From sequence record NC_052659.1: 64,000 bases of DNA; one strand, 5' to 3'. Of this stretch, positions 6,016-48,848 are shown in pieces. The position numbers and the translations under genes are program-made. The stretch comes from Escherichia phage nieznany. Position 1 is the stretch's first letter. Each line of letters begins with the position of its first letter. A model generated the notes under the pieces. It worked only from the letters and a program-made list of their open reading frames with translations, did no database searches and was not told where the DNA came from.

Positions 6016-6175
6016 TCTTTTTCTTCAACCTTCCTCAAAGCTTTTTGATCGAATATGGCGTGTTGCAATTCCCCGTTTTCATCGAACCAAGTTACTTTAC
6101 AAGATTCACCATAACTTTCTATTACTGTCATTTGTTTGTTTGCACCTTTAAGGCAAACCACATCACCTACTTGCA

Positions 6176-6625
6176 TCATGATTGAGTTCCTTTTTGTTTT
6201 TCAATAGCTGCACGAATTTCTGCTAAAGGTTCTGCTACCAAGTCTTCAACTTCTTGGATTTGTTCATTCATCACATCACGAACCATTTGAATACGCTCTT
6301 CAAGGGAAACAGCAAGTTCATCTGCATAAGCCATATTAAGAACGTGGTAGAAATTTTCTTGTGCACTTAAAGCACCAGATAACAAATAATCCTGATCTTC
6401 CTCTGGTAAAAGCATGTGTTGCTCATATTCAGCAAAAGTGTTTTTGTTAATCTCAAGCAAAGCACCCATCATAACATCATACTGATAATCTTTATGACCA
6501 GGATTGTTTAAAATAATATCTTCAAAGATATTAAGAAGAATCTTAGTAACAAAAGCATTGTTTTCGGCACCTTCCATCTGACGGATTACCGTGATTACTT
6601 CTTTTTCTTTAGCGTTTTGGCTCAT
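6176..6625 (-). CDS. hypothetical protein
   Basis: 149-aa ORF. Confidence 0.5.
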   Translation of the reverse strand: MSQNAKEKEVITVIRQMEGAENNAFVTKILLNIFEDIILNNPGHKDYQYDVMMGALLEINKNTFAEYEQHMLLPEEDQDYLLSGALSAQENFYHVLNMAYADELAVSLEERIQMVRDVMNEQIQEVEDLVAEPLAEIRAAIEKQKGTQS

Positions 6626-7256: not shown

Positions 7257-7457
7257 TCTTCCTCCTGTTCGGTATTATTCACCTGTGAGACACAATGTAA
7301 CACAAGTTTTGTGAGTTTGTCAAGGATCTAATTACATTCTACAGAAGAAGAGGGTTAATAACTATAGGAATAGTCTTACTATAGGTGCAATACTAGTTAA
7401 GAGTTAGATTGATAGGTAAGACTTATCTTAAACAGATAATTGATAGGTGAGTCACCA

Positions 7458-8587: not shown

Positions 8588-8960
8588 ACTGTGCTACCTT
8601 TTCTTTTACCCAATCTACACGATCTTTATCATAATGTTGAGTGCCAAGGAAAAGACCATTGTGGAAACTTTCCTCACCGAAAGGATAAATCGGATCTAAA
8701 CCATCTTCTTCAAATAACATTTTTAGTCTCTGTGATGTAGATTTCTTAGTTTCTGAGTTGTAGCTTGTGGTTATAAGCCAATCTTCCAAACAACGACACA
8801 AACCTTGACGAGAATCCCAAGGAAAAACACAATCTCCGACAGGAGCTTGTTCAGCCCATTTCAACCAGCCTTTAAAAAAGTTATACAGTATGTAGTCTTC
8901 AGTGTAATACATTATCTCCTCCTTTACGTATACAATAACACCCCGAAGAACGGGGTGCAA
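8574..8960 (-). CDS. hypothetical protein
   Basis: 128-aa ORF with GGAGGAG RBS. Confidence 0.5.
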   Translation of the reverse strand: MHPVLRGVIVYVKEEIMYYTEDYILYNFFKGWLKWAEQAPVGDCVFPWDSRQGLCRCLEDWLITTSYNSETKKSTSQRLKMLFEEDGLDPIYPFGEESFHNGLFLGTQHYDKDRVDWVKEKVAQYEWG

Positions 8961-16132: not shown

Positions 16133-17771
16133 ATTATGCTCCTTTGTAGATTATGTTGGTGCGTTCACACTCTGCCACCAGCAAGCCAAGCTTTGTAAAA
16201 CTTCATTAGACGTAAGCTACTCAACGGAACATTTTTACTCTCTTGCATGATAATCTCCTCTCATCGTTAGCCATCTTTCATGGCAATCATCAATCACCAA
16301 CATCATACGATCAATCTTAGGGAATTACAATCGAATTATCATAGGGGATTCCTATCAATTATCCCCTATATACCGATTATTTTTGACACCCCACTCTTGT
16401 ATAAAAAGTAACCCAAAATATCTACGGGGAGAGATTATTTCGGGACACCCTGTTTCATGGCAATCATGGCAAGAATATCTAATAGAATCAATATCATATG
16501 GCAAAAATCATGGCGCATACGTAAGAAGTGCTTAACGCGAATTTTCGGGCCGTCAGGTCCACGCAGCGACAATTCCCAAATATCATGCGAATGAGAATAA
16601 TTATCATTCGTATTCAATGACTTATGCAAAGCTCATGCCAACGTAGCGACAAGGTGGGCCACTTGATTATAAATCACACAAACACTTATTTATCAATGGT
16701 TTGGCAACCTCATCATATGACGGAACAATGTCAACTAATCCCGCTCATGACAAGCAGACTATTATTTATATGAGAATGATTATTATTTAAACGTTTATTA
16801 ATATAAAAACTAGAATAAATCAAGATTATTCTGATTTTATTTACGTTTAAGAGAAGGTGCTCAACATATCGCGTAGCGATAGTATTCGCCCCCCAAAAGA
16901 TTAGCCTTTATTTTCTTGTATGTTTATACACTATGTGCACACTATGCAACCTGTCGCTATTCGCTCATGTTGCTACGTGCAATTATTCATCTTGCTAATG
17001 ATGATCACACTGAACGATAGTGATAACTCTTGTAATTACCACAATGATTATTGTTATTGCGCTAATGTTATGATCTTGGTAATTACATATAATGCTAATA
17101 ATAAGCCAGCGCAATAAGTGTAAGCGTCATTACGCTTGCAATTATTGCAAGCTACGCAGTAACAAGAAATAACCGTCACCGATGGTTATGATTGTTGGGG
17201 TGTAGTTGGCTTATTATTAGCTCGCTATGTGTCCGGCATAGCGTGCTAATGATGACTCTGTGAATGATTAGTTTTGTAATGATTTCATTCAGGCACTATT
17301 TTGCTAATAGTTATTATTTTAATGGTTTCGTTTGTTATTGTTCGTTAGTTGGTTGTTTTGTCATGTTATCGTTATTTTGCTTAGTATTCATCATGGTTTG
17401 ATTGTTTGTCGTTATCAATCATCTTGCTATTATTCCTTTGATTATGATTAGTTTGCTTATTGTTTTATGTTGTTTGTTGGTTAGTTGTTGCGAACTATTA
17501 TCAACATTATAGTTATGCACTTATATTGCATAGATAAACATGGATAGATGATAATGGTTATCATTGCACCAGAAAGGAGGTAAAAGGGTGTTTTTGATGG
17601 TTTGTTGTTGGTTGTTGATCGATTTTAACCGCTTTAAATGGCTCTCTAACAGCCTGTAACCCTGGGATGTATGGTTATTCGTTTGCTGGTTGATTAGCTC
17701 GATACCACGATTTATTCAGTTTTGTTCTGTGTCGGTTTTTCATAGGCGAAAGCTATCAACATTGTTCGGGC
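16133..17771. other. 1.6-kb gene-free region with repeated motifs and strong GT skew (17220-17700); candidate origin or non-coding locus
   Basis: No credible ORF; repeated CATGGCAATCAT and GTAGCGAC-type motifs; G+T-rich plus strand. Confidence 0.5.
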
Positions 17772-17808
17772 AAAAAGAAAGGGCGCTTGGTGCGCCCCTT
17801 GTTTTGTT
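17772..17808 (-). terminator. rho-independent terminator ending the leftward small-gene array (bidirectional shape)
   Basis: GGGCGCTTGGTGCGCCC hairpin flanked by A-run and T-run; same element recurs at 20124-20156. Confidence 0.55.
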
Positions 17809-17813
17809 GTCGA

Positions 17814-18047
17814 TTATAACGCTTCATAGATTGAGTAGATCCGGTTTGCCAGGTCATTACGAAAGCGGAATTTTTCATCACGTTTGATCATCAGATCCTT
17901 AAAACCATATTCTTTCAATGCTTCATTAACTTTATGGCGGCAAACGTTCATATTATCCTGCGCGTCACCAATAAACTTATTACTGTGATGCATTGCTTTG
18001 ATCTCTTCCTCTAATACCAGGGCAACTACTGCGATCATCTTTTTCAT
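17814..18047 (-). CDS. small protein
   Basis: 77-aa ORF; GGAAGAGGA RBS; GC hairpin in 5' leader. Confidence 0.45.
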   Translation of the reverse strand: MKKMIAVVALVLEEEIKAMHHSNKFIGDAQDNMNVCRHKVNEALKEYGFKDLMIKRDEKFRFRNDLANRIYSIYEAL

Positions 18048-18101
18048 GCGTCTATCCTCTTCCTATTGCGTTTAATGGGGCGTTACCGCCCCGCTTATGG
18101 T

Positions 18102-18338
18102 TTATTGATTGATGTTATGATGAAAGTTATTTTCTTCAATAGCTTTTAAAATAAAAGCCGTGATCGCTTTCGTGTCTACTTGTTCGAACGTATCAGAATA
18201 AGCCCAATAATAATCATCCCCTACTTTCGGCGGGTAAACCTGGACAAGGAGATCGCCACCTGGTTGATCTATAAGCTCAACATGCAAGCCGGATGATTCA
18301 GCGGTTTTAACGGCGTTTAATACTGTTGCAATACTCAT
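18102..18338 (-). CDS. small protein
   Basis: 78-aa ORF; GAAAGGAAAAG RBS; GC hairpin in leader. Confidence 0.45.
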   Translation of the reverse strand: MSIATVLNAVKTAESSGLHVELIDQPGGDLLVQVYPPKVGDDYYWAYSDTFEQVDTKAITAFILKAIEENNFHHNINQ

Positions 18339-18382
18339 AATCTTTTCCTTTCTGATGTGGGGCGTTGCCGCCCCTTTGTTGA

Positions 18383-18682
18383 TTAGATCGCTGTTTCCAG
18401 TAGTTCGGCTAACGTCTTACCGCCTGATAGTTGGTCTAACGTTTGCTCTTCTGGCAAGAAATTAGCTGATATTAAACCGACTTGATTCCCTTTGTGCCAG
18501 TTAGCCTGGCGGATGATTCCATCCTTTAAGGATTTTACCGCCATTGTGCAACCGTCGCCAAATGATTCATTTTTATGGTCCATCACTTCATAAGCGCCCA
18601 GTTTGCTGCTGTTAGGCACCATTAACGCGAACACATCACCAACAACCAGTTTTTCTACGGTAACAATAGCGATAGTTTCCAT
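18383..18682 (-). CDS. small protein
   Basis: 99-aa ORF downstream of promoter-hairpin module. Confidence 0.45.
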   Translation of the reverse strand: METIAIVTVEKLVVGDVFALMVPNSSKLGAYEVMDHKNESFGDGCTMAVKSLKDGIIRQANWHKGNQVGLISANFLPEEQTLDQLSGGKTLAELLETAI

Positions 18683-18700
18683 TTTATTTTCCTCATTATC

Positions 18701-18757
18701 GGCGGCACCATTGCCGCCCTACAAGATACATATTACCAGACTAAGCCGACTTGTCAA
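18701..18757 (-). promoter_or_regulatory. promoter (TTGACA..TAATAT) plus 5' leader stem-loop GGCGGCA-CCAT-TGCCGCC
   Basis: -35 complement at 18752-18757, -10 complement at 18730-18735, hairpin 18701-18718, then RBS. Confidence 0.5.
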
Positions 18758-18758
18758 A

Positions 18759-18869
18759 CTATTTTTTCTTTTTCTTTGCTTCCAACCGTCTAAGGTTACG
18801 GCTGGACTTATTACGCAAGGCGCTCAGATCGTCGTACCCTTTCCATGCTTGCATATCTTTCGGATTCAT
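18759..18869 (-). CDS. micro-protein (36 aa, basic C-terminus)
   Basis: ATG preceded by AAGGGGG; below ORF-track length cutoff. Confidence 0.3.
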   Translation of the reverse strand: MNPKDMQAWKGYDDLSALRNKSSRNLRRLEAKKKKK

Positions 18870-18878
18870 GTTACCCCC

Positions 18879-19040
18879 TTACTTGTTAGCCGGATCATAT
18901 ACCAGGACCGCGCCACTTGCTTTCACGCTTTCCGCTTCATAGTTGCGCAAATCGTTTTCTGTAAGATTGAGCGCGATCACTTCCTCGATCTCGATACCAG
19001 TGGCAAGGGCGATCTCTTTGATAATGTCTGCTATTTTCAT
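18879..19040 (-). CDS. small protein
   Basis: Internal ATG at 19040 chosen so as not to overlap neighbour. Confidence 0.35.
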   Translation of the reverse strand: MKIADIIKEIALATGIEIEEVIALNLTENDLRNYEAESVKASGAVLVYDPANK

Positions 19041-19050
19041 GGTGTGTACC

Positions 19051-19170
19051 TTATAAGATGATTGATAAGATAGTGACAACGAAAGCGATTATACTGATGG
19101 CAAATGTCATCTTTTTACCTTCGGATACTGCCGGATTCTCTACCGTGTATTCTACTGTGTACTTGCTCAT
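19051..19170 (-). CDS. micro membrane protein (39 aa)
   Basis: ATG after GAGAGGA RBS; hydrophobic C-terminus; downstream of promoter-like module at about 19194-19250. Confidence 0.3.
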   Translation of the reverse strand: MSKYTVEYTVENPAVSEGKKMTFAISIIAFVVTILSIIL

Positions 19171-19267
19171 CGTGTAATCCTCTCGTTTGCTTTGGGGACT
19201 ATTCCCGCCGCCCTATGAATTAAATATACACTATCTCAAAATGATTGCAAGCCTTTTTCTAAATTAT

Positions 19268-19552
19268 TTATGCAGTAAACAAACCATCATTTACAACGGC
19301 GGCGATGATCTCCCGTGCCATTGATTCAGGGAAAGGGGCGCTATAGTCCTGGCTTGTCTCGTCGGTGTCAGTGATACAATGATAAGCTAACGAGTAAAAG
19401 CCTTTACTAACTGTTTTCAGTGAGACGATGATCACTCGGTCAAGCTTATTGGTGAATGTTGCCGTTAATGTGTTACCCTCCTGCGTCATGTTGGACAAGT
19501 AAGCGAGATCATTAATCAGGGAAAACATTAGCACGGTGTTAGCTTTACTCAT
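19268..19552 (-). CDS. small protein
   Basis: Start at ATG 19552 after GAGGATG RBS. Confidence 0.45.
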   Translation of the reverse strand: MSKANTVLMFSLINDLAYLSNMTQEGNTLTATFTNKLDRVIIVSLKTVSKGFYSLAYHCITDTDETSQDYSAPFPESMAREIIAAVVNDGLFTA

Positions 19553-19568
19553 GATTGCATCCTCAAAG

Positions 19569-19617
19569 GGGCGCGGCACCATTGCCGCCCTACACGATAA
19601 CTATAACACAATGTAAA
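19569..19617 (-). promoter_or_regulatory. promoter-like sequence plus leader stem-loop (GGCACCATTGCC family)
   Basis: Hairpin 19569-19590; -35-like TTTACA complement at 19612-19617. Confidence 0.4.
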
Positions 19618-19623
19618 ACAGGA

Positions 19624-19830
19624 TCAACCTTTATTTTTCCACGGTGTCAGCTTGTTAATCATTGGTGATAAATAGCGTTTACCAACGTAAAACAGTACGC
19701 CAACTGATGCAACGGCGGCGACCTCATGCATAGCCGACGGGAAACGGGTATCATAATAAGATCCAATAATAGCGATAGCGGCAACGGCTGCAACGTCGAT
19801 AATGATTTTTTCTTGTTTTGCGGTGATCAT
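19624..19830 (-). CDS. small membrane protein
   Basis: 68 aa with hydrophobic core AAVAAIAIIGSYY. Confidence 0.45.
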   Translation of the reverse strand: MITAKQEKIIIDVAAVAAIAIIGSYYDTRFPSAMHEVAAVASVGVLFYVGKRYLSPMINKLTPWKNKG

Positions 19831-19852
19831 AATATTTACCTTTTTGTATGGT

Positions 19853-19909
19853 GGGGAACTATTCCCCGCCTGATGTAATACAGTTTAACAGGTCCGGTTA
19901 TGGTGTCAA
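19853..19909 (-). promoter_or_regulatory. promoter (TTGACA-N17-TAAACT) plus leader stem-loop GGGGAATAGTTCCCC
   Basis: -35 complement 19904-19909; hairpin 19853-19870. Confidence 0.5.
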
Positions 19910-19915
19910 CCGTTT

Positions 19916-20101
19916 TTAAAGATATTTTATGCTAATAACGTTTTCCGGTTTAACCTTGTTATAATGTGCATCAACATAGATCAAACCATCGTCAGAAAAG
20001 CCCAGGATCACGCCCTGCGCAATAAAACCGTATTCGTCACGGTAACGCACGGCTATTTTTAATGTTGCGCTGTACGCTGTTTTAAGCTCGTTTAAAATCA
20101 T
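19916..20101 (-). CDS. small protein
   Basis: 61-aa ORF. Confidence 0.4.
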   Translation of the reverse strand: MILNELKTAYSATLKIAVRYRDEYGFIAQGVILGFSDDGLIYVDAHYNKVKPENVISIKYL

Positions 20102-20123
20102 TTTTGTTTATCCTCTACATGTA

Positions 20124-20156
20124 AAAAGAAAGGGCGCTTGGTGCGCCCTTGTTATG
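20124..20156 (-). terminator. terminator candidate (second copy of AAAGAAAGGGCGCTTGGTGCGCCC element)
   Basis: Hairpin 20132-20148 with flanking T/A runs. Confidence 0.5.
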
Positions 20157-20303
20157 TTAATCCTCTAAATCCATCCAATTATATTTGTCACTCTTCCCGC
20201 GCTTTGTTTTATTACGCTTGTCGCCTTTGCGGATCACTTCCTCGTTCCAGGCCTTGCGGATCTTGGAAGATTGAATTTTTTCTGCGCGATTAGATGTATT
20301 CAT
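20157..20303 (-). CDS. micro-protein (48 aa, basic)
   Basis: ATG after GAAGAGGAAA RBS. Confidence 0.35.
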   Translation of the reverse strand: MNTSNRAEKIQSSKIRKAWNEEVIRKGDKRNKTKRGKSDKYNWMDLED

Positions 20304-20322
20304 TTTGTTTCCTCTTCATATG

Positions 20323-20376
20323 AGCGGCACCATTGCCGCTATATTGTTAATTTAAACTGTTTTGTAAAATTGTCAA
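20323..20376 (-). promoter_or_regulatory. promoter plus leader stem-loop
   Basis: Hairpin 20323-20340 (AGCGGCACCATTGCCGCT); -35 complement 20371-20376. Confidence 0.5.
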
Positions 20377-20382
20377 GGTTTA

Positions 20383-20736
20383 TCATTCATAAGAGCAAGC
20401 AAGGATCACGCCTGCAATATAAAGCCAATAATTTTCCCTTTCTCGTTGGATTTTATCATCGCGGCTATTCTCTTTAATGTATCCCCAGGATGTTAACAGG
20501 CGATCAATTTCCCAATATTCGAAAGCGATATTGATATCTGATGGCAAACCTTGTAACCATGATGCAAGTGCTTTAACAATACTATAATTAAAACGTGATT
20601 GGTTATCAGGGTACCAGTACTCGGAATTAAAACGGCGCATCAATTCCGCGATCTTCTCTTTTTCGGTTGTAATACCGTAATCATTAAAATCGATAGCGGC
20701 AAGGATGTACTCTTTAATTGCATTTTGTGCTTTCAT
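20383..20736 (-). CDS. small protein
   Basis: 117-aa ORF with AAGAGAGAAAG RBS. Confidence 0.5.
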   Translation of the reverse strand: MKAQNAIKEYILAAIDFNDYGITTEKEKIAELMRRFNSEYWYPDNQSRFNYSIVKALASWLQGLPSDINIAFEYWEIDRLLTSWGYIKENSRDDKIQRERENYWLYIAGVILACSYE

Positions 20737-20755
20737 GGTCTTTCTCTCTTTTTGA

Positions 20756-20812
20756 GCGGGAGCTATTCCCGCCCTACGTGTAACAGTTTACTGAAAATTA
20801 AATCCGTGTCAA
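20756..20812 (-). promoter_or_regulatory. promoter plus leader stem-loop
   Basis: Hairpin 20756-20772 (GCGGGAGCTATTCCCGC); -35 complement 20807-20812. Confidence 0.5.
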
Positions 20813-20815
20813 GCT

Positions 20816-21037
20816 TTATTTTGTTACTACCATTTGGTACCCTGTTTCAATGTTAGTAAATACTGTTATCCCGTCCTGGCGTTCACTCATTAGCATACAA
20901 GGCGCTAACATCCTTTCTACTGCCTTGCACTCGTTGTAAACGGCGGTTATATCTCCTGCGGCCTTGTCTTCTGTAGTAAATGTCTCGTTTACGTAAACCT
21001 GACCAGCAACAACGGCGACAATAGCAAAAGTGATCAT
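20816..21037 (-). CDS. small secreted or membrane protein
   Basis: Start at internal ATG giving MITFAIVAVVAGQVYV hydrophobic N-terminus. Confidence 0.4.
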   Translation of the reverse strand: MITFAIVAVVAGQVYVNETFTTEDKAAGDITAVYNECKAVERMLAPCMLMSERQDGITVFTNIETGYQMVVTK

Positions 21038-21116
21038 AATGTTTTTTCTCTTTATGTGTTTCGTTTCAATTAGTTGATAATACAGCAATTTGCAGATTAG
21101 TCTTTAGCAATTCATG

Positions 21117-21335
21117 CTATTTACTCACAACAATATCGAAAACAAATTTTTCTTTGTTGTCTAAGCTCACGTATCCGATTCGACCACGCAATCCGAGAGT
21201 AGTGCCGTATTCGTAACCATCAAGACCTTTAACCTTCCAATCCATGCCCATTAAAACCGCATTATATTTCTGACCAACTACAAAAGCGCCACCAGTTGAT
21301 TCAATGCAAACAACTTTAATTTTACGGATTGCCAT
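21117..21335 (-). CDS. small protein
   Basis: 72-aa ORF; upstream TTGACT-N16-TATAAT on minus strand (about 21378-21410). Confidence 0.45.
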   Translation of the reverse strand: MAIRKIKVVCIESTGGAFVVGQKYNAVLMGMDWKVKGLDGYEYGTTLGLRGRIGYVSLDNKEKFVFDIVVSK

Positions 21336-21412
21336 TTTCTTTCTCTCTTTCTGGTGATTGGTTTCTCTTCTCTATAGCGCCCATTATAAGGCGCTATAAC
21401 GAAAAGTCAACG

Positions 21413-21582
21413 ATTATTTTTTAAGGCTTAAAGTACCTAACTTGTCAGCATGACGTAGACCAGGGAAGATCCATTTTCCTGATTCATCTTTTACAGGGGC
21501 TTTAAGCGTAGCGCCCAGGTTGGCGGCGTTAACTTTACGTGCAACGTTGCGAGCGGCTTCACGGGTAGCGAAAGTGATCATG
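21413..21582 (-). CDS. micro-protein (55 aa)
   Basis: ATG with RBS; CGT/CTG-rich codons; below ORF-track cutoff. Confidence 0.4.
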
Positions 21583-21605
21583 ATATTTTCCTCTTCTCTT
21601 TGTTA

Positions 21606-21667
21606 GGCGGTGGACCATTCCGCCGCCTTGATGTAATACAGTTTACTCTTTTTCTTTCCCGTGTCAA
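21606..21667 (-). promoter_or_regulatory. promoter plus leader stem-loop
   Basis: Hairpin 21606-21627; -35 complement 21662-21667. Confidence 0.5.
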
Positions 21668-21676
21668 CAATCTTTT

Positions 21677-21904
21677 TCAGATTAATTCATCCAGGCATAA
21701 CAGGCGATCAACGTTGAGATCGGTCAGGCTGATGGTTGGCACCTGGTAGGATTCGATGTACTCGACGCTTGCATATTCCCCAAAATTAGCAATAGCCCAC
21801 TTATTCAAGATCTCACATACATCATTAATCTTTTTGTTTGTTACAACTGCAATAACCTGGGAAGTGCCAACGGTGCCGGATACGCGAACAATATTGATAG
21901 CCAT
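21677..21904 (-). CDS. small protein
   Basis: 75-aa ORF. Confidence 0.45.
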   Translation of the reverse strand: MAINIVRVSGTVGTSQVIAVVTNKKINDVCEILNKWAIANFGEYASVEYIESYQVPTISLTDLNVDRLLCLDELI

Positions 21905-21926
21905 AATCTTTAATCTCTCTGTTGTT

Positions 21927-21986
21927 GGCGGGAAACCACTTCCCGCCCTATGTGATACATCTTACACTAATTTTAAACGTTGTCAA
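21927..21986 (-). promoter_or_regulatory. promoter plus leader stem-loop
   Basis: Hairpin 21927-21947 (GGCGGGAAACCACTTCCCGCC); -35 complement 21981-21986. Confidence 0.5.
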
Positions 21987-21995
21987 CTGTTTTTA

Positions 21996-22235
21996 TTACA
22001 TTCCAACCATCGCGGCGCGGATCGCTGTAGTGCTATACTTGAAACCGTCTGGAGTTTTATCTTGTCCAGTTTGTTCCAGGAATAACATCATATCACGGGC
22101 AGCATCATTACGATTAGTATTAGCGGCGATAAATTCTTTCGCCAACCGATATAATGATTCATCGTTATTAATCCAAAGGCTTACATTCCAGTGAGTTTTA
22201 TTTTTGTGACCTAAGAACATTTTTGATTTAGCCAT
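21996..22235 (-). CDS. small protein
   Basis: 79-aa ORF. Confidence 0.45.
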   Translation of the reverse strand: MAKSKMFLGHKNKTHWNVSLWINNDESLYRLAKEFIAANTNRNDAARDMMLFLEQTGQDKTPDGFKYSTTAIRAAMVGM

Positions 22236-22259
22236 GATATTAATCTCTTTTTCAGTGAG

Positions 22260-22318
22260 GCGGGAAGTATTCCCGCTCTCTATGTAATACAGTTTACTCT
22301 TTTTATTCGTGCTGTCAA
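22260..22318 (-). promoter_or_regulatory. promoter plus leader stem-loop
   Basis: Hairpin 22260-22276 (GCGGGAAGTATTCCCGC); -35 complement 22313-22318. Confidence 0.5.
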
Positions 22319-22324
22319 TGCTTT

Positions 22325-22690
22325 TTATAAATCTTTTTTACGTTTAACATCGCTCGCATGACTGTATACAGTGATCCCATTGTCACGGCAAAAACGGGAA
22401 AGATACGCGCCGCGTGAAAACTCTTTACCTTCCATATTAATAACCTTGCTAAATTCTTCCAGGGCGACGGTATCAAAATGATCACCATAGCCATATTGAA
22501 ACGGAACGTTAACCACCTCGATCAGTTTACCGCCGATCTCAACGTCAACCATTAAAGAAAAATATGTGTTACCGTAAGACTGTTGAAACCAGCGACGGGC
22601 GCTAATGTGCACCGCTTCAATGCTGGATAATTCAATTTTAGCCGTGTTAGCCAGGGTAGCATAAGCGGAAACATTGATATTAATAGCCAT
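22325..22690 (-). CDS. small protein
   Basis: 121-aa ORF. Confidence 0.5.
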   Translation of the reverse strand: MAININVSAYATLANTAKIELSSIEAVHISARRWFQQSYGNTYFSLMVDVEIGGKLIEVVNVPFQYGYGDHFDTVALEEFSKVINMEGKEFSRGAYLSRFCRDNGITVYSHASDVKRKKDL

Positions 22691-22716
22691 GATGATAATC
22701 TCTCTTTTTGGTTAGT

Positions 22717-22769
22717 GGGAAGTATTCCCGATAAAAGTTATTATGCTTATACTATCACTCATTGTCAAT
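22717..22769 (-). promoter_or_regulatory. promoter plus degenerate leader stem-loop
   Basis: GGGAAGTATTCCC 22717-22729; -35 complement 22764-22769. Confidence 0.4.
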
Positions 22770-22787
22770 AGTATAAGACTAAAACTT

Positions 22788-22967
22788 TTAACGATAATCG
22801 TTATAGGCTTTATTGACCTGGCGAATGTAACATTCGAAAGCAAGATCAATGTATTCGTATTCACGCACATAATCACCATAGGTCACTACATACATTTTTA
22901 AAGTTTCCTCATAAGCCAGGAGGATCGAATCTAAACCTATAATCTCAGTTTTTGCAATGATAGCCAT
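22788..22967 (-). CDS. micro-protein (59 aa)
   Basis: ATG-initiated ORF downstream of promoter module; below ORF-track cutoff. Confidence 0.4.
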   Translation of the reverse strand: MAIIAKTEIIGLDSILLAYEETLKMYVVTYGDYVREYEYIDLAFECYIRQVNKAYNDYR

Positions 22968-22987
22968 GATGTTAACCTTTTATTGTT

Positions 22988-23044
22988 GGCGGCACCATTG
23001 CCGCCCTACGTGATAAACTATACCAGAAGTTTAAACAGTGTCAA
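22988..23044 (-). promoter_or_regulatory. promoter plus leader stem-loop
   Basis: Hairpin 22988-23005 (GGCGGCACCATTGCCGCC); -35 complement 23039-23044. Confidence 0.5.
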
Positions 23045-23050
23045 CCGTTT

Positions 23051-23413
23051 TTATTCGTAAATTTTACCGCTTTCGGCCCATACCATAACGCGGCGCATAC
23101 TATCCCAAGTGTTTTGATCCAAGTTTAAGCCGTGCAACTCTTCGGTACTTCCCAGACCAGGTACCGCTTTGTTGTAAGTCGCATATAAGCGCCCTTGATA
23201 CTCATACGCCAGAGTAAGATCCGTTTGAATCATCTTTTTAAGCATAGCATTAAGCATCATATTAGCGGCATGTTGATCACGTTTTAGCGGTAACATGTCA
23301 ATAAGGGCGCGATAAGCTGAAACATGAATATCAACCGTTTCACGTGGTAAATTTTTCATATCATCGCGGAAAGATACCAGATTAAACATGATAGTATTGA
23401 TTTGCTTGCTCAT
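23051..23413 (-). CDS. small protein
   Basis: 120-aa ORF. Confidence 0.5.
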   Translation of the reverse strand: MSKQINTIMFNLVSFRDDMKNLPRETVDIHVSAYRALIDMLPLKRDQHAANMMLNAMLKKMIQTDLTLAYEYQGRLYATYNKAVPGLGSTEELHGLNLDQNTWDSMRRVMVWAESGKIYE

Positions 23414-23434
23414 TGTGTTACCCTTTTTTGTTTT

Positions 23435-23495
23435 GGCGGGGAAGTATTCCGCCGCCCTATGTGATACATCTTATCAGATTAAAAAACGTTGTCAA
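23435..23495 (-). promoter_or_regulatory. promoter plus leader stem-loop
   Basis: Hairpin 23435-23456; -35 complement 23490-23495. Confidence 0.5.
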
Positions 23496-23503
23496 GAATA
23501 TTT

Positions 23504-23599
23504 TTAGAAAATAATAGCCGCTACTACAACCCAAAATGGAACGGCTAGAATGATAGCGTTAATCGTTCCAACCGTCAAGCTATTTTCTTTATTAATCAT
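23504..23599 (-). CDS. micro membrane peptide (31 aa)
   Basis: ATG after AAGAGG; entirely hydrophobic core; has its own promoter-hairpin module. Confidence 0.3.
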   Translation of the reverse strand: MINKENSLTVGTINAIILAVPFWVVVAAIIF

Positions 23600-23627
23600 T
23601 GTAAGCCTCTTGCATAATTTCACTATG

Positions 23628-23685
23628 AGCGGCACCATTGCCGCCCTACGTGGTAAATATTATGCCAGTGGCGGCGATATGTCAA
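23628..23685 (-). promoter_or_regulatory. promoter plus leader stem-loop
   Basis: Hairpin 23628-23647; -35 complement 23680-23685. Confidence 0.5.
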
Positions 23686-24248
23686 AGACTATTTTCAAAG
23701 TTTTCTAGTGCGATCCTTTTTTCTTCCTCTGTCGGCTGATAATCAGGAAAAGCATCAACACACAACAACGGCGGGATCTCTTCGTACTCTTCCTCTTCCG
23801 TTGTCTCCTCGTCTTCCTCCTGGGCTATGGCTGCAATTTTGGCTAATTTTCTTTCAGCTTGAATCAATTTACCATCAAGTACGTTTTTTGCCATGTTGTA
23901 AGCGGTCCAGGTGATGCGCTTACTTTCCAGGGCCTGATCGAGCGCCGCTATCTTGCTGGGGTATTCATCCAGGACACGAAAAGCTGGATCAACTTTGTAC
24001 AAAGGATTATCTTTCGCGCCGTCGCTCGCATCTTCCGCACTGGATAAATCAGCGTTACCATTTGCCAGCCAGCCAGGGCGCACATAACGCGCTTTTACGT
24101 TGCCGTTACTACGTGCTAATCTGTTACCTATTTGCTCACCACTATATCCCGTGGATTCATCGATAAGATGATCGGGAATGATGCGCGGATCATCTGCTTC
24201 ATGTTTTACCCAAGACTGGATCACATATTCGCGGCCCATATTAACCAC
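23682..24248 (-). CDS. hypothetical protein with acidic linker
   Basis: 188-aa ORF, largest in the array. Confidence 0.5.
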   Translation of the reverse strand: MVNMGREYVIQSWVKHEADDPRIIPDHLIDESTGYSGEQIGNRLARSNGNVKARYVRPGWLANGNADLSSAEDASDGAKDNPLYKVDPAFRVLDEYPSKIAALDQALESKRITWTAYNMAKNVLDGKLIQAERKLAKIAAIAQEEDEETTEEEEYEEIPPLLCVDAFPDYQPTEEEKRIALENFENSL

Positions 24249-24498
24249 CTTTTTTCAACAATTGGCATACTTTAAAAAGACTTGCTGAATCCTTGCAAGG
24301 GTAGAAAGATGTACGATAATCACGTACGCCAACCTTGAGGATCTCGATGTTCTCGCATGTTGTTTGATCAAAGATATTTATTTCATCACGCCCCCTTATA
24401 TAAACATAGTGGGGATGTATTAACGCATATTTTGCTAATCTGTAAAAAGCGTTATCTTTGAACGCGATCACGTGACCTTTTAATTTGATGTAAAACAT
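24241..24498 (-). CDS. small protein
   Basis: 85-aa ORF, AAGGTGG RBS. Confidence 0.45.
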   Translation of the reverse strand: MFYIKLKGHVIAFKDNAFYRLAKYALIHPHYVYIRGRDEINIFDQTTCENIEILKVGVRDYRTSFYPCKDSASLFKVCQLLKKGG

Positions 24499-24515
24499 TC
24501 TACCACCTTACAAAT

Positions 24516-24571
24516 AGCGGGAACTATTCCCGCTTTATGTAACATATTAACAAATTATTCGTTAATGTCAA
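24516..24571 (-). promoter_or_regulatory. promoter plus leader stem-loop (a second -35-like TGTCAA at 24614-24619)
   Basis: Hairpin 24516-24534 (AGCGGGAACTATTCCCGCT); -35 complement 24566-24571. Confidence 0.45.
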
Positions 24572-24574
24572 GCC

Positions 24575-24847
24575 TTAAAGCAAAAACGCTACATCTTGCG
24601 CTTTTAATGTAGTGTCAACCATTTTCGGGCTTTTATAATCAACAAAGCGCGCGGTTTTTTCAATAGCAAAACCGAGATAATCTTGTTTATTGAATTTACA
24701 TTCTTTCTTAAATGTTTCCCGCGCCACGGTGATCGCTGCGTCCAGGGATAAACGCCCGTCAATATTGATATTAGCGAAAGATCCGCCACCGCTCATAGGT
24801 TTACCAGTTGTGCCAGCTACGATCATTGTTGCGCTATATGATGCCAT
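24575..24847 (-). CDS. small protein
   Basis: 90-aa ORF. Confidence 0.45.
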   Translation of the reverse strand: MASYSATMIVAGTTGKPMSGGGSFANINIDGRLSLDAAITVARETFKKECKFNKQDYLGFAIEKTARFVDYKSPKMVDTTLKAQDVAFLL

Positions 24848-24872
24848 GATGATAATCTCTCTTCTGTTACGA

Positions 24873-24932
24873 GCGGGAAACCACTTCCCGCCCTATGTGA
24901 TACATCTTATCAGGTTGTTGTTTGTTGTCAAT
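24873..24932 (-). promoter_or_regulatory. promoter plus leader stem-loop
   Basis: Hairpin 24873-24891; -35 complement 24927-24932. Confidence 0.5.
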
Positions 24933-24937
24933 AGTTT

Positions 24938-25135
24938 TTATTCTATTCCTGCAATTTGATTAACGCGCTTGCATTTTGTAGCGTGCTGGTCTTCTGTAAT
25001 GACTCCCATTTCTAACAGGGAATCAATGAAAGATAAAACCGTTTCATGATCATCCTGGGGGTGACTGAACTCAGTAAAACCGTTTACCACTACGTTGATT
25101 TGTCCAGCTTTCGCCACAATGTGCAATGTTGCCAT
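24938..25135 (-). CDS. small protein
   Basis: Start at internal ATG 25135 with GGAG RBS, downstream of hairpin 25154-25172. Confidence 0.45.
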   Translation of the reverse strand: MATLHIVAKAGQINVVVNGFTEFSHPQDDHETVLSFIDSLLEMGVITEDQHATKCKRVNQIAGIE

Positions 25136-25153
25136 GATCTTAACTCCAAATAG

Positions 25154-25213
25154 TGAGCGGCACCATTGCCGCCCTACAAGATGAATACTACGCCGCCGTC
25201 TGGTTAACGTCAA
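25154..25213 (-). promoter_or_regulatory. promoter (TTGACG -35) plus leader stem-loop; first module of leftward array
   Basis: Hairpin 25154-25172 (GAGCGGCACCATTGCCGCC); -35 complement 25208-25213. Confidence 0.45.
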
Positions 25214-25321
25214 CCATTTTTCAATCTTTTTTATTTTCTTTTTGCTTGCTATATATAAAGAAAAGGGCTATTATCTTTCTACCGCGCCAACCAGGGCGCA
25301 CAACAAAGAAAGGGCGATACC

Positions 25322-25616: not shown

Positions 25617-25974
25617 GTTTTACATACAGAAGAGGAAGCGCCACCCCCACGGCGTAAAGGCGGGGCTAACATACCAGGGGGCACTGGTTGGAAGGTTGAT
25701 CGCCGGTAGGCTGGGCGCTATATATTTGTAAAGAAATGTAAAGATAAAATAATCGCTTGCTTTCCTAGCTGGATCTGTTATTCTTATTACATGGCGAGGG
25801 GACACGGGAGCGCGAGACAAACACCGCCCCTGCGCGTCATTCTCTAAATGAGATTGATTCTTATTTAATAAGGTAAATGACAATCATTCTCATTTATAAA
25901 CTTAAATGCGAATCATTATCATTTGCATTTCCATATGAGAACTCTTCTCATTTTCACCTGCATAAAAATTTTTG

Positions 25975-45596: not shown

Positions 45597-46253
45597 ATGA
45601 CAATAAAACATATCTCTTTTGATGTATGGAATACTCTTATTTCTGCCAATCAAAACTATGCAGATGCACGTACGCACACTATTGCTACATATGGTAGAAT
45701 GTCTGAACGTGCGGCAAAAGAAGCGTATAAAGATGCCAAAGAAATTATGGATAATGCTGCACTAAATGGGTGTGCAGAAGGTGTAGCATATGCATGGAAT
45801 ATGTTGGGAAGAAAGATAGGTTTAACCCCTGTAGAATCTGCACAAATGCGTTTTGAATGTGAGCAATGGTTTCTTAAATTTCCTCCACATATCGCTTTAG
45901 ATTTGCCAGTTTGTTTGCTATACTTGTCTGGTAAATATGATCTTAGTATTAAAAGCAATACTAATTTTATATCTGGGGATATTTTGCGTCGTGCTTGTAT
46001 GTTCGACAGTTGGAATTGTTTTGAATTTATGCATTTTTCAGACGAACATCTGTTATGTAAACCAGATCCTAGATTCTTTGTTAGGACCGCCACATATTCA
46101 AGCATTCCTTTGAAGGCTGAAGAGATTTTACATGTTGGGGACAGCGAAGAATTTGATGGTAAATGTGTTGACATAGGGATTAACTTCTGTCATATTAAGA
46201 ACCCTAACGACTTACTAGAGAAACTTAAAAGAGGAGAAATTGTAAATGCGTAA
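45597..46253 (+). CDS. HAD-superfamily hydrolase-like protein (non-canonical motif I)
   Basis: ISFDVWNTL in place of DxDGT, and C-terminal HVGDSEEFD (GDxxxD). Confidence 0.4.
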   Translation: MTIKHISFDVWNTLISANQNYADARTHTIATYGRMSERAAKEAYKDAKEIMDNAALNGCAEGVAYAWNMLGRKIGLTPVESAQMRFECEQWFLKFPPHIALDLPVCLLYLSGKYDLSIKSNTNFISGDILRRACMFDSWNCFEFMHFSDEHLLCKPDPRFFVRTATYSSIPLKAEEILHVGDSEEFDGKCVDIGINFCHIKNPNDLLEKLKRGEIVNA

Positions 46254-47073
46254 TCAAACTCAAATTTTTGCAAATAAATTTGATGACCTGGAAACTGCTA
46301 CTTTTGATATCAAAGATTATTCAAAATTGAAATTTGGTAGTAACCAAGCTGCGCGTCGTATGGGTAAAGAATTGGCACTTCAGTTTTTTGCTCAAGTGGC
46401 AATGAAACATATTGGGGAACAATTTGTTATCATTCCTTCTCCTTATAACCATGTGCATAATGCTGCAACAATGATGACAGATCATTTTATTAATTACTTT
46501 AATATGTTGCAAGCACAATATGATCAAGGTTGTTCAGCAGAACTGGATATTATTCATCGTAAAGTTAGCTATATCAACGATTATGGTTTCTTGGATAAAG
46601 CTAGTCGTAAGAAACTTATTGATGGGGATACATTCTACTGCAACAAAGAATTCTGGGGTGATAAGAAGCTTGTGTTCATTGATGATGTAAATATCACTGG
46701 AACTCATGAAGACAAACTGATTGAGATTCTTGATGAAAATCAAGTTAAAAATGATGTTTACTTCTTGTATTTTGCAAAATATGAAGGTAATCAAGCAGAT
46801 ACTGAAGCTAAACTGAATTTTAACTACATCAATACACCAGAAGCGTTTGTTAAAATGATTAATGAAGAACGTGATGCACAGTGTCTTGTTCGTCCTATTA
46901 AGTATCTTATGGGCCAAAATCACGAAGACTTCAAAATCATTCTTAGCCAATTGCCACACTACTATGTAGAGCAACTTTTCTTCGGATGTTTGGGAGAAGG
47001 TTACAACCGAATTTCAAAGTATGCTGAAAACTTTGAATTCTTGGATCGTTACACAAAACAACACATTCTGTAA
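46246..47073 (+). CDS. phosphoribosyltransferase (type I PRTase)-like protein
   Basis: KLVFIDDVNITGT matches PRTase PRPP-binding motif. Confidence 0.5.
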   Translation: MRNQTQIFANKFDDLETATFDIKDYSKLKFGSNQAARRMGKELALQFFAQVAMKHIGEQFVIIPSPYNHVHNAATMMTDHFINYFNMLQAQYDQGCSAELDIIHRKVSYINDYGFLDKASRKKLIDGDTFYCNKEFWGDKKLVFIDDVNITGTHEDKLIEILDENQVKNDVYFLYFAKYEGNQADTEAKLNFNYINTPEAFVKMINEERDAQCLVRPIKYLMGQNHEDFKIILSQLPHYYVEQLFFGCLGEGYNRISKYAENFEFLDRYTKQHIL

Positions 47074-47086
47074 TAAGGAGCTAAAA

Positions 47087-47560
47087 ATGCTTAAAATGAA
47101 AACAGGTAATCTTATTGATGCCGCTAAAGCAGGTGAAGTAACTGTTATTGCTCATTGTTGCAATTGTATGTGTAATATGGGGGCAGGAATTGCTCCGCAA
47201 ATTAAACGAGCATTCCCTTATGCATATGCGGCAGATTTAGACACAACGGCTGGTGATCAAAGTAAGTTAGGTTCTTTTAGTTTAGGGGTGCCAGACGAAC
47301 AATCAGACCCTTTGGTATATAATCTATACGGGCAATACCGTTACGGATACAATGCTAAAGGTCGTCAGTTGGACTATGATGCACTTTACGATGCACTAAT
47401 AGCTATGGCTAATGATTTGCTTCTCCGTGACCAAAAATGTAAGATCGGCTTACCTATGATTGGCGCTGGATATGCTGGAGGTAATTGGGCTATCATCCAA
47501 GTGATGATTGAAGAAACTTTAGTAAAAACAGGTCACGATGTGACTATTTATAAACTTTAA
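47087..47560 (+). CDS. macro-domain (ADP-ribose binding/processing) protein
   Basis: HCCNCMCNMGAGIA resembles macro-domain N..N..GgGv.A motif; start at ATG 47087 after AAGGAG. Confidence 0.55.
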   Translation: MLKMKTGNLIDAAKAGEVTVIAHCCNCMCNMGAGIAPQIKRAFPYAYAADLDTTAGDQSKLGSFSLGVPDEQSDPLVYNLYGQYRYGYNAKGRQLDYDALYDALIAMANDLLLRDQKCKIGLPMIGAGYAGGNWAIIQVMIEETLVKTGHDVTIYKL

Positions 47561-47572
47561 GAGGAGATTAGT

Positions 47573-47794
47573 ATGGGTGTTTTTGCAGGTATTGTTGCAG
47601 TGGTAAGCTTTTTTGTTATTGCTTTTATGCTTAGTTTGATTCCAGCTTGGTTACTGTTGCTGGCTTACAACTATGTTGCTGAAGTTATGGGTCATGCAGA
47701 TATCACTGTCCCAGTAACCTTCTGGACCGTGGTTTGTGTTTCGTTTATTCTGGCAGTATTACGAGGAATCTTTTCCTCTCATTCAACAAAATAA
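47573..47794 (+). CDS. small membrane protein
   Basis: 73 aa, two hydrophobic helices. Confidence 0.45.
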   Translation: MGVFAGIVAVVSFFVIAFMLSLIPAWLLLLAYNYVAEVMGHADITVPVTFWTVVCVSFILAVLRGIFSSHSTK

Positions 47795-47797
47795 GTG

Positions 47798-47856
47798 TTG
47801 ACATAGTTCTTAAAAAGAGTAAGATATATCACATGAAGCGGGGAATAGTTCCCCGC
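47798..47856 (+). promoter_or_regulatory. promoter (TTGACA..TAAGAT) plus leader stem-loop GCGGGGAATAGTTCCCCGC upstream of TerC gene
   Basis: Same stem-loop family as the leftward early array, here on plus strand; hairpin 47838-47856. Confidence 0.5.
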
Positions 47857-47873
47857 AAAGAGAGGAGAAAAGA

Positions 47874-48848
47874 ATGCAACTCGGTTTCCCAGTTATTGAT
47901 GTAGTTGTTTTAGTTGGTATTTTGGCATTGTCTATTGGTATCGATTTCTTTGGTCATAAAGAGAATAAAGAAATTGGAATTAAATCTGCTTTGCTTTGGT
48001 CTGTTTTTTGGATTGCTTTAGCTTTAGGATATTACGCATTCATTTGGGTAGAACATGGTAAAGAGTTTGCCGCGCTTTTCCTAAGTGGCTATGTGTTGGA
48101 AAAGAGTCTTTCTGTAGATAACCTGATGGTGTTCATGGCAATTTTTGCAAGCTTTGGAATTAAGAGCACACATCTCCAACATAAGATTTTACTTTGGGGG
48201 ATTGCAGGAGCCATTGTCTTCCGAGGTATTTTTGTTGCAGCAGGGACCGCTTTGTTTAACCTTCATTGGTCGGTCCAAGTGTTGTTCGGTTTGATTGTAG
48301 CTTGGTCTGCCGTGGCTATCATCAAAGGTGGTGACGAAGAAGAGGATATTGATTACTCTAAGCATTGGGCTGTTCGTTTAGTAGGTAAAGTTCTGCCTGT
48401 GCACAATGCACTAGATGGTGAAAAGTTCATTACCATTAAGAATGGTATTAAATATGCAACTCCTGCTCTTCTTTGTGTGTTTGTTATTGAGCTTACAGAT
48501 ATTGTCTTCTCTTTTGATTCAGTTCCGGCTGTGATCGGTGTGACACAAGAACCTCTGCTAGTTTATTCTGCAATGCTGATGGCTGTTCTTGGTTTACGTG
48601 CACTTTTCTTTGTGTTAAGTGTAGCTGTGAAATATCTGGTTCACTTAGAGAAAGCTGTTGCTGTGGTTCTGGTGTTTGTTGGTGCTAAACTTATGTATCA
48701 CCCGTTCGGTGAAACACTTCATGCCAAGTGGTCATTCCTCCCGCATGATATTTCCCCTAACGTAAGTCTGATGATTGTTCTAGGCACATTATCTCTTGGT
48801 GTTATTGCAAGCTTTATCTTCCCTGAAAAAGAAGAAGCTACTGTTTAA
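47874..48848 (+). CDS. TerC-family integral membrane protein
   Basis: 324 aa, multiple TM helices, conserved acidic residues in helices typical of TerC. Confidence 0.55.
   Translation: MQLGFPVIDVVVLVGILALSIGIDFFGHKENKEIGIKSALLWSVFWIALALGYYAFIWVEHGKEFAALFLSGYVLEKSLSVDNLMVFMAIFASFGIKSTHLQHKILLWGIAGAIVFRGIFVAAGTALFNLHWSVQVLFGLIVAWSAVAIIKGGDEEEDIDYSKHWAVRLVGKVLPVHNALDGEKFITIKNGIKYATPALLCVFVIELTDIVFSFDSVPAVIGVTQEPLLVYSAMLMAVLGLRALFFVLSVAVKYLVHLEKAVAVVLVFVGAKLMYHPFGETLHAKWSFLPHDISPNVSLMIVLGTLSLGVIASFIFPEKEEATV

Follow-up and report, generated by a model that had tools for sequence, protein, structure and literature searches.

Why should a run of very small phage genes carry, in front of most of its members, one and the same combination of a host-type promoter and a GC-rich hairpin? 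The question arises at positions 17772-25213 of the 64,000-nt stretch of Escherichia phage nieznany (NC_052659.1) that we analysed, called the window below, where the minus strand, read from 25213 to 17772, holds a tight array of small genes separated by spacers of about 75-85 nt that are alike. By its sequence the window is that of a phAPEC8-like myovirus of the genus Phapecoctavirus (Stephanstirmvirinae), and a nucleotide search finds the region 96-97% identical in DNA to Phapecoctavirus genomes (Ro121c4YLVW, EP57, tuntematon, Mt1B1_P17). We count 24 genes of 31-185 aa with plausible Shine-Dalgarno (SD) sequences, from a list of open reading frames (ORFs) and inspection of ribosome binding sites (RBSs), where an initial annotation made from the letters alone had spoken of about 30. 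The explanation we consider likely is that this is the variable early-gene array of a phAPEC8-like phage, in which the repeated module is an expression cassette, its 5' hairpin likely a stabiliser of the mRNA, and in which copies of the module also support homologous shuffling of the genes, as in the early promoter and stem-loop (PeSL) cassettes of T4-type phages.

The module has a constant order: an A-rich upstream stretch, TTGACA, 16-18 nt, TAnnnT, about 10 nt, a GC-rich hairpin of 6-9 bp, an A-rich spacer, an SD sequence and ATG. A promoter pattern (TTGACA with at most one mismatch, N16-18, TAnnnT) matches the minus strand at 15 sites between 17.7 and 25.3 kb, and a strong hairpin comes after every one; folding of the next 40 nt gives a mean of -13.8 kcal/mol, against -5.1 kcal/mol at 66 other promoter-like sites of the window. 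The pattern thus stands where the initial annotation placed it and goes well past what chance would give. Three further family modules have weaker promoter boxes (m22768, m19627 and m19250, named as in Table 1), and in m22768 and m19250 the hairpin is degraded as well. The region contains 16 family modules serving 16 of the 24 genes, in agreement with the earlier estimate of at least 16, and an independent consensus scan likewise gives 16 minus-strand sites there with at least 10 of 12 promoter matches. A covariance model seeded on six copies of the same geometry recovers, at E<=0.04 over the 64 kb, 14 copies on the minus strand at 18.7-25.2 kb and one on the plus strand at 47789-47861, and finds no other family copy anywhere in the 64 kb. 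Rfam at the gathering score has no match in the same 64 kb, and a relaxed search returns one chance hit (E 0.67). The hairpin census is energy-based, replacing a first, loose promoter-plus-palindrome pattern that was too noisy, and the covariance model replaces a whole-module alignment with MAFFT and RNAalifold that yielded only 4 pairs because loop and stem lengths differ.

The proposal that each gene has its own promoter is supported by the sequence for 17 of the 24 (the 16 family modules and the non-family m21410), which have near-consensus sigma70 boxes with A-rich sequence upstream, and does not hold for the remaining seven. Three of these, identified by their start positions, are translationally coupled (24239, 19040, 18869); gene 20101 lies behind a terminator, and genes 21037, 18338 and 18047 follow promoterless hairpins or plain spacers.

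The anatomy of the module is best seen in 137 unique sequences, drawn from the window and from 12 related loci. Of these, 109 have a perfect TTGACA as the -35 and 101 a spacer of 16 nt; the -10 is mostly TAAGAT, TAATAT, TATAGT or TAAACT. In most, the GC stem begins 9-11 nt past the -10, the mean hairpin free energy is -15.1 kcal/mol, and the ATG follows the end of the hairpin at a median of 20 nt. The window's own copies lie between -11 and -18 kcal/mol in 15 of 17 cases. After the -10 the sequence reads GTATCAC(A/G)TAGGGCGG. The preferred start for transcription is a purine at +1 with a pyrimidine at -1, 7-8 nt from the -10; here the predicted +1 should be the A or G 8 nt after the -10, preceded by C, with some three unpaired nucleotides before a stem that would begin at about +4. 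Leaders predicted in this way fold as a single 5'-proximal hairpin starting at nt 2-5 and leave the SD and ATG unpaired, with fold z-scores of -2.2 to -4.7 in 13 of 17.

Similarity between copies extends past the SD into the first codons (for example AGAGAGATTATCATCATGGC), so that several products start MAI or MITFA and the ATG is often followed by GCU-AUC. Unrelated neighbours share such first codons, as MITFA... at 20816-21037 and 21414-21581 and as MAI(N/I)I... at 21677-21904, 22325-22690 and 22788-22967, and some crossovers lie at the start-codon homology (22701/22960, 21056/21340). It may be the cassette, and not protein function, that dictates the N-terminal residues here.

As comparison of the copies shows, the hairpin is kept by selection as a structure. 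A model-based alignment of the 150 best copies, from 13 phages, contains 116 distinct sequences, across which 94.7% of cells are paired; pair 61-90 is CG in 75 and GC in 33, and pair 52-99 is GU in 58, GC in 37 and AU in 9. On each of five measures the observed value lies beyond all of 500 column shuffles, and slid registers all score far lower. At one pair G.U is the commonest state, which would be C.A on the other strand, and therefore an RNA structure on the sense strand is favoured over a symmetric DNA operator. A census of mismatches on unique stems (17 G.T against 4 A.C) also favours the coding strand and is supportive only, because most of the G.T cases are one inherited position. In relatives, unrelated stems stand at the same place (GGGGCG-ACAAG-CGCCCC, GGGGAGAA-TAG-TTCTCCCC, CGGGAAA-TGG-TTTCCCG), and early promoters of the rV5-like phage FV3 carry the stems GGGGCAA/TTGCCCC, GGGGAG/CTCCCC and GGGAA/TTCCC.

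The tails of the family stems are A-rich throughout and never T-rich, and there is no U-tract at any of them, as the initial annotation had seen. A scan for a hairpin with a T-run passes none of the 16 family hairpins, and in the array only 17800-17778 and 20150-20130 pass. Together with the predicted stem onset and the coding-strand bias of G.U, this points to a leader rather than a terminator, again as first suggested. Both canonical terminators hold an exact 26-nt repeat, AAAAAGAAAGGGCGCTTGGTGCGCCC (17772-17797 and 20123-20148), and thus the terminators, too, are duplicated units. Two other hairpins of the array, at 18359-18374 (GGGGCGGCAACGCCCC) and 18077-18092 (GGGGCGGTAACGCCCC), have near-identical GC stems with neither promoter nor U-tract; a stem related to the former, GGGGCG..CGCCCC, is found behind promoters in relatives, and the two may be cassette remnants after promoter loss or 3' stabilisers. 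We also considered the family hairpins as sites of RNase III processing. Such a site needs about 20 bp or more of double-stranded RNA, and with stems of only 6-9 bp we rejected this role.

Recombination between module copies, as the comparison with relatives shows at the sequence level, drives the gain, loss and swapping of gene cassettes. An alignment of window positions 17700-25300 with the corresponding arrays in 11 Phapecoctavirus genomes shows differences that consist of indels and replacements the size of a cassette, and 23 of 34 junction endpoints (20 junction classes) fall in modules, which make up 23% of the region (binomial p ~5e-8), an enrichment that is in part expected, as discussed below. 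The ~16-20 direct repeats of the array share 20-70 nt. The alignments on either side of m18757 and of m21667 overlap by 37-82 nt, which means that for the single module copy of the window relatives have two, with 0.23-2.1 kb of additional genes between them; the overlap at m21667 (21577-21653) recurs in 9 related Phapecoctavirus genomes, and that at m18757 (18702-18768) in relatives with 1.5-2.1 kb more between the two copies. ESCO25 is without window positions 21656-22233 (two genes) and has in their place a single hybrid module, its 5' part from m22318 and its 3' part from m21667, the switch lying inside a shared 23-mer, AAAAAGAGTAAACTGTATTACAT, in the promoter spacer/-10 segment. In phiWec188, which is without 19599-19866 (one gene), the promoter of m19909 is fused to the hairpin of m19627 by a crossover between the -10 and the hairpin. 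ECO340P2, SKA64 and KKP3954 are without 22701/22721-22960, with the crossover at the RBS/ATG stretch, and nepoznato is without module m20812 itself. The crossover points thus vary along the module and always lie in shared sequence, which argues for homologous and not site-specific recombination.

How far does the module reach beyond this genome? With one module as blastn query, 138 phage records matched, and among the matches listed almost all are Phapecoctavirus or Justusliebigvirus (the phi92 group). FV3, of the Vequintavirinae, matches in the promoter half only at its blastn-matched locus; elsewhere two of its genes that are annotated as being without rV5 homologues sit behind modules of Stephanstirmvirinae type. 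The FV3_162 protein and phi92 gp243 are 95% identical, and the two phages share 330 bp at 87% DNA identity (FV3 locus 6037-6364, phi92 locus 8599-8929) with both ends in modules; FV3_159 and FV3_160 are 73-97% identical to array genes of Stephanstirmvirinae. This suggests that cassettes move genes between two subfamilies, represented here by Vequintavirus and Justusliebigvirus. The resemblance that the initial annotation saw to promoter-plus-stem-loop cassettes thought to drive gene shuffling is borne out by the junctions that overlap modules among the 11 relatives, by the two hybrids and by this cross-subfamily cassette.

The copy that had been reported ahead of a TerC gene on the opposite strand is a complete module as well and is the plus-strand match of the covariance model; 17 nt downstream begins an ORF of 324 aa with a Pfam match to TerC (3e-40). 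The copy lies within a plus-strand block, 46246-48848, that also encodes a ComF-like PRTase (PF15610, 2.9e-42) and has a weak, sub-threshold match to a Macro domain (E 1.8e-4; 21.8 bits against a 22-bit cut-off).

Both halves of the module have been annotated before. The phAPEC8 record (JX561091) labels the sigma70 part a 'putative host dependent promoter determined with MEME' and the 20-mer gtagggcggcaatggtgccg, which is the hairpin, a 'putative promoter determined with PHIRE'. These are the same two elements at orthologous positions, but they are entered there as two independent promoters, and neither their coupling nor the structure nor a role in recombination is recorded; in the phi92 record only RBSs are annotated in the array. 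In the searchable literature on phAPEC8, Phapecoctavirus and Stephanstirmvirinae we found no description of a coupled hairpin or of a recombination role. Sigma70-like early promoter sets have been described for rV5 (PMC3606486) and the Certrevirus CB7 (PMC7344957), with near-consensus host promoters, UP-like A-tracts and arrays of short hypothetical genes as here. Those papers describe no coupled stem-loop, whereas our scan of FV3 shows one at several early promoters.

The closest known system is that of the PeSL cassettes of T4-type phages (Arbiol, Comeau, Krisch 2010, PMC2839356; Comeau 2014, PMC4122927), and the array has every defining feature that sequence and comparison can show. The predicted promoters are of the same kind, with an exact TTGACA in 109 of 137, a TAnnnT -10 and A-rich sequence upstream; a stable GC-rich stem-loop is coupled to a sigma70-like early promoter; the SD and start codon stand at the 3' end of the element; the elements cluster among ORFans in a hyperplastic region (here 14 of 15 significant copies at 18.7-25.2 kb); and indel and replacement junctions fall in the elements, with a hybrid element where a relative has two. 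The differences are that the hosts of the element are here Stephanstirmvirinae (the phi92/phAPEC8 group) and rV5-like phages and not T4-like ones, and that the T4-type stem-loop, which has been read as a terminator, takes various positions (upstream of the boxes, between them, over them or right before +1), whereas the one here has a constant place 9-11 nt past the -10, in the cassette's own predicted transcript, with homology that extends through the RBS into the first codons. Module m21410 stands apart from its neighbours: its 9-bp hairpin (TATAGCGCC/GGCGCTATA, within 21365-21410) carries the -10 hexamer inside the loop, and since a stem-loop over the -10 is T4-type PeSL geometry, the one array would hold two cassette geometries. 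We therefore see a PeSL architecture, as far as sequence can tell, in a non-T4 lineage and not a new mechanism. Its novelty is moderate: T4-type phages already show the architecture, and both halves had been annotated in phAPEC8 under another name.

What the cassette would do for the phage can be put together as follows. Unmodified host RNA polymerase would start at each cassette immediately after infection, giving each gene its own strong start and a transcript that begins about 3 nt before the hairpin, so that its 5' end would be base-paired. By analogy with ompA, the hairpin would most likely hinder RppH and the 5'-end-dependent entry of RNase E, and so protect the mRNA. Scanning RNase E readily gets past internal stem-loops (PMC9943677), and it is for this reason that closeness to the 5' end would be what matters. 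Stem-loops at the 5' end are known to stabilise E. coli mRNAs (Emory 1992, Bouvet & Belasco 1992 and Arnold 1998, as cited in PMC3997798). The ompA and papA 5' untranslated regions resemble the leaders here in having a stable hairpin a few nucleotides from the 5' end (predicted, in our case) and an open RBS after it; they differ in being single-gene elements with measured effects on half-life, whereas ours is a multi-copy family with a predicted 5' end. The unstructured A-rich spacer and strong SD would keep the RBS open for efficient translation, and read-through transcripts would probably run on to the two U-tract terminators and so form nested mRNAs. Weak attenuation of read-through by the hairpins is possible but would not be their main role, since this phage, where it does terminate, relies on canonical U-tract terminators. 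As repeats, the modules serve as substrates for homologous recombination, by which a gene between two cassettes is deleted, inserted or swapped, leaving a hybrid cassette, and by which cassettes can also pass between related phage lineages.

Several points weigh against this stabiliser-and-shuffling explanation. Promoter activity, the +1 and the effect of the hairpin are things we infer from sequence. Some 3 unpaired bases at the 5' terminus would give borderline protection, the threshold being about 2-4 nt. The covariation counts few independent events, because the copies are recombining paralogues, and the alignment was fitted to the model's own structure. The concentration of 23 of 34 endpoints in modules is partly trivial, since viable indels fall between genes and modules largely fill the intergenic space, and three junction classes (18016-18029, 18880 and 18377) lie outside module mediation. 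Modules m22768 and m19250 keep decayed hairpins, and the sigma70-like promoters at 7323, 11355 and 12271 on the same strand have none, so the hairpin is not indispensable.

The alternative to which we give some, though clearly lesser, weight is that the hairpins terminate or attenuate transcription arriving from the upstream cassette and so insulate each gene, as was first proposed for PeSL stem-loops. In RB49/phi1 one such stem-loop cut downstream lacZ about as much as rrnB T1 did (PMC2839356); the hairpins here are stable (-11 to -16 kcal/mol) and sit between every gene pair, and otherwise some 17 co-directional strong promoters would sum. Yet the tails are A-rich and T-runs number zero, while textbook U-tract terminators stand in the same array at 20150-20130 and 17805-17773, and the hairpin is always downstream of its own promoter, where a strong terminator would abort the cassette's own transcript about 25 nt in. 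We judge it rather unlikely that a phage or host protein binds the hairpin and so makes the early genes a regulon, coordinately shut off or spared from RNA decay. One element at ~16-20 early genes and one metabolic gene (TerC), at a fixed promoter distance and with a conserved flank, (C/T)A(C/T)(A/G)TAGGGCGG, would suit such a regulon, but loops and upper stems differ by class (ATGG, TAG, TAC, GTGGT, ACAAG) and whole stems are replaced in relatives and FV3, so that a structural requirement fits better than a sequence-specific ligand; the prevalence of G.U at one pair speaks against a symmetric double-stranded DNA operator, and we identified no candidate binding protein. Similarly doubtful is the form of this idea in which the 5' hairpin is an identity tag recognised by its structure, through which tagged early mRNAs would be selectively spared or shut off. 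Were it true, a gene captured between two cassettes would join the regulon at once, even across subfamilies, since promoter and tag move together within a recombinogenic cassette.

We find it very improbable that the hairpin is a functionless passenger in a repeat homogenised by gene conversion: copies do recombine, many stems are identical and two copies have decayed, but the level of pairing with CG/GC and GU/GC/AU exchanges, and the several unrelated stems at equal distance from the -10, also in another subfamily, are not what a passenger would leave. Two further readings seem to us scarcely credible. PHIRE reports conserved 20-mers and not promoter function. In the phAPEC8 record gtagggcggcaatggtgccg and its paralogues, some 20 nt ahead of start codons, are labelled promoters, which would make the 20-mer a phage-specific promoter; against this, the sequence is a palindrome that forms a hairpin, with a near-consensus sigma70 promoter 9-11 nt upstream of it, compensatory pairing is kept, unrelated hairpins replace it in other copies, and about 20 nt to the ATG would leave almost no leader. 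The other makes the hairpins structure-specific recombination sites, attC-like and served by a dedicated recombinase. Like integron attC cassettes, those of the array are small, bounded by hairpin repeats whose structure is kept better than their sequence, and gained and lost precisely. Integron cassettes, however, are generally promoterless and moved by an integrase at a fixed site, whereas here each has its own promoter and the crossovers are spread over the homology, at the promoter spacer/-10 (ESCO25), from the -10 to the hairpin (phiWec188) or at the RBS/ATG (ECO340P2, SKA64, KKP3954).

Table 1. Coordinates of the array, its genes, modules and other hairpins, and of the isolated module copy, in window positions
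Feature	Position	Strand	Description
Array	17814..25135	-	24 small early-type genes, 31-185 aa
Genes 1-6 (start..stop)	25135..24938, 24847..24575, 24498..24241, 24239..23682, 23599..23504, 23413..23051	-	
Genes 7-12 (start..stop)	22967..22788, 22690..22325, 22235..21996, 21904..21677, 21581..21414, 21335..21117	-	
Genes 13-18 (start..stop)	21037..20816, 20736..20383, 20303..20157, 20101..19916, 19830..19624, 19552..19268	-	
Genes 19-24 (start..stop)	19170..19051, 19040..18879, 18869..18759, 18682..18383, 18338..18102, 18047..17814	-	
m25213	25136..25213	-	TTGACG-17-TAGTAT, hairpin 25174-25155 (GGGCGGCAAUGGUGCCGCUC), RBS; model E 1.5e-18
m24931	24848..24931	-	TTGACA-16-TAAGAT, hairpin 24893-24871; model E 8e-9
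m24571	24499..24571	-	TTGACA-16-TAATAT, hairpin 24534-24516; model E 4e-4
m23685	23600..23685	-	TTGACA-17-TAATAT, hairpin 23646-23627; E 8e-19; precedes 31-aa hydrophobic peptide gene
m23495	23414..23495	-	TTGACA-16-TAAGAT, hairpin 23456-23435; model E 1e-6
m23044	22968..23044	-	TTGACA-16-TATAGT, hairpin 23005-22988; model E 3e-20
m22768, degenerate hairpin	22691..22768	-	TTGACA-17-CATAAT, weak stem 22729-22717 (-5.5 kcal/mol)
m22318	22236..22318	-	TTGACA-16-TAAACT, hairpin 22276-22260; model E 1e-3
m21986	21905..21986	-	TTGACA-16-TAAGAT, hairpin 21947-21927; model E 2e-11
m21667	21582..21667	-	TTGACA-16-TAAACT, hairpin 21628-21605; model E 4e-3
m21410, non-family	21336..21410	-	TTGACT-16-TATAAT, unrelated hairpin, core stem 21398-21373
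m20812	20737..20812	-	TTGACA-16-TAAACT, hairpin 20774-20754; model E 3e-10
m20376	20304..20376	-	TTGACA-16-TAAATT, hairpin 20340-20323; model E 4e-16
m19909	19831..19909	-	TTGACA-16-TAAACT, hairpin 19870-19850, one C.A mismatch; model E 0.036
m19627	19553..19627	-	TTGATC-16-TATAGT, hairpin 19588-19573; model E 3e-18
m19250, degenerate	19171..19250	-	TTGCAA-16-TATATT, weak stem ~19213-19194; model E 0.82
m18757	18683..18757	-	TTGACA-16-TAATAT, hairpin 18718-18701; model E 1.4e-19
Promoterless intercistronic hairpin	18359..18374	-	GGGGCGGCAACGCCCC, without U-tract
Promoterless intercistronic hairpin	18077..18092	-	GGGGCGGUAACGCCCC, without U-tract
Canonical intrinsic terminator after gene 15	20130..20150	-	hairpin then TCTTTTT
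Canonical intrinsic terminator closing the array	17773..17805	-	hairpin and U-tract
Isolated family copy before TerC	47798..47873	+	TTGACA-16-TAAGAT, hairpin 47838-47856; E 4e-6, fold z -4.67

The genes between the modules are, as far as their sequences tell, genuine, including the tiniest. The same coding sequences (CDS) are annotated in relatives' records, and the matching stretch in close relatives has 32-39 annotated CDS, more than the 24 of the window because the window carries deletions. ORFs of 31, 36, 39 and 48 aa are kept as ORFs in related Phapecoctavirus genomes, and those of 31, 39 and 48 aa also in phi92 and Bas60, where hydrophobic stretches change conservatively. By eye, the 31-aa product of 23504-23599 has a hydrophobic C-terminal stretch. 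A PHROG family match was obtained for 23 of the 24 products, 22 of them in families of unknown function, and among the 24 only the 39-aa product has the label membrane protein/moron. Pfam gave no match for the five array proteins searched, and a tRNA search of the window found none. Ksap2, a small Stephanstirmvirinae protein sensed by KpAvs2 (PMC11564622), was considered as a possible member of the array and set aside, since bas60_0220 lies outside the array genes bas60_0114-0145.

The last gene of the array, 17814-18047, is a chimera in which the first ~10 codons of one gene continue in frame into the final 72 codons of another, 139 aa long; its PHROG alignment pairs residues 5-77 with profile positions 67-139 of 139. 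The junction, at 18016-18029, is a 14-nt microhomology within coding sequence and outside any module, and 7 related Phapecoctavirus genomes have 1.6-2.2 kb (about 5 genes) between 18029 and 18016.

Both flanks of the array have features of their own. Just downstream of the array terminator, ~16900-17770 is AT-rich (GC 0.35-0.37), with short and low-complexity ORFs only, and holds two long hairpins, 17111-17148 (-18.8 kcal/mol) and 17211-17255 (-24.4 kcal/mol); the sign of the GC skew flips near 17000. At an apparently corresponding position tuntematon has ~1.6 kb without annotated CDS, and the genome map in the rV5 paper shows a 'non-coding' box. Perhaps the segment serves as an origin or some other cis element. 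Immediately upstream of the array, a very AT-rich divergent intergenic region (GC 0.28) contains at 25845-25924 a tandem repeat with 2.8 copies of a 29-nt unit that includes the palindrome AAATGAGAATCATTCTCATTT; the tuntematon record has a repeat_region at a similar place, upstream of its array, and this may be an operator or iteron-like site. Records labelled as Campylobacter, Pseudomonas, Acinetobacter and Klebsiella phages (B15, PsgM04F, ABPW7, ZCKP1) are 86-99% identical to the region; these host labels are doubtful, or the phages are polyvalent, or the records are contaminants.

For the databases, these results mean a correction: what phAPEC8-like genomes carry as a 'PHIRE promoter' is to be read as a leader hairpin. 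The natural series of ~200 variants of promoter, 5' hairpin and translation initiation is also a resource on 5' structure and mRNA lifetime in E. coli. More broadly, the PeSL idea, in which an early promoter and stem-loop provide portable homology for the shuffling of accessory genes, is extended beyond the T4 superfamily, to a phage group that is widely isolated for therapy and biocontrol. The modules show exactly by which units small early genes are traded among these phages, and such arrays are a plausible place to seek functions in host takeover and anti-defence.

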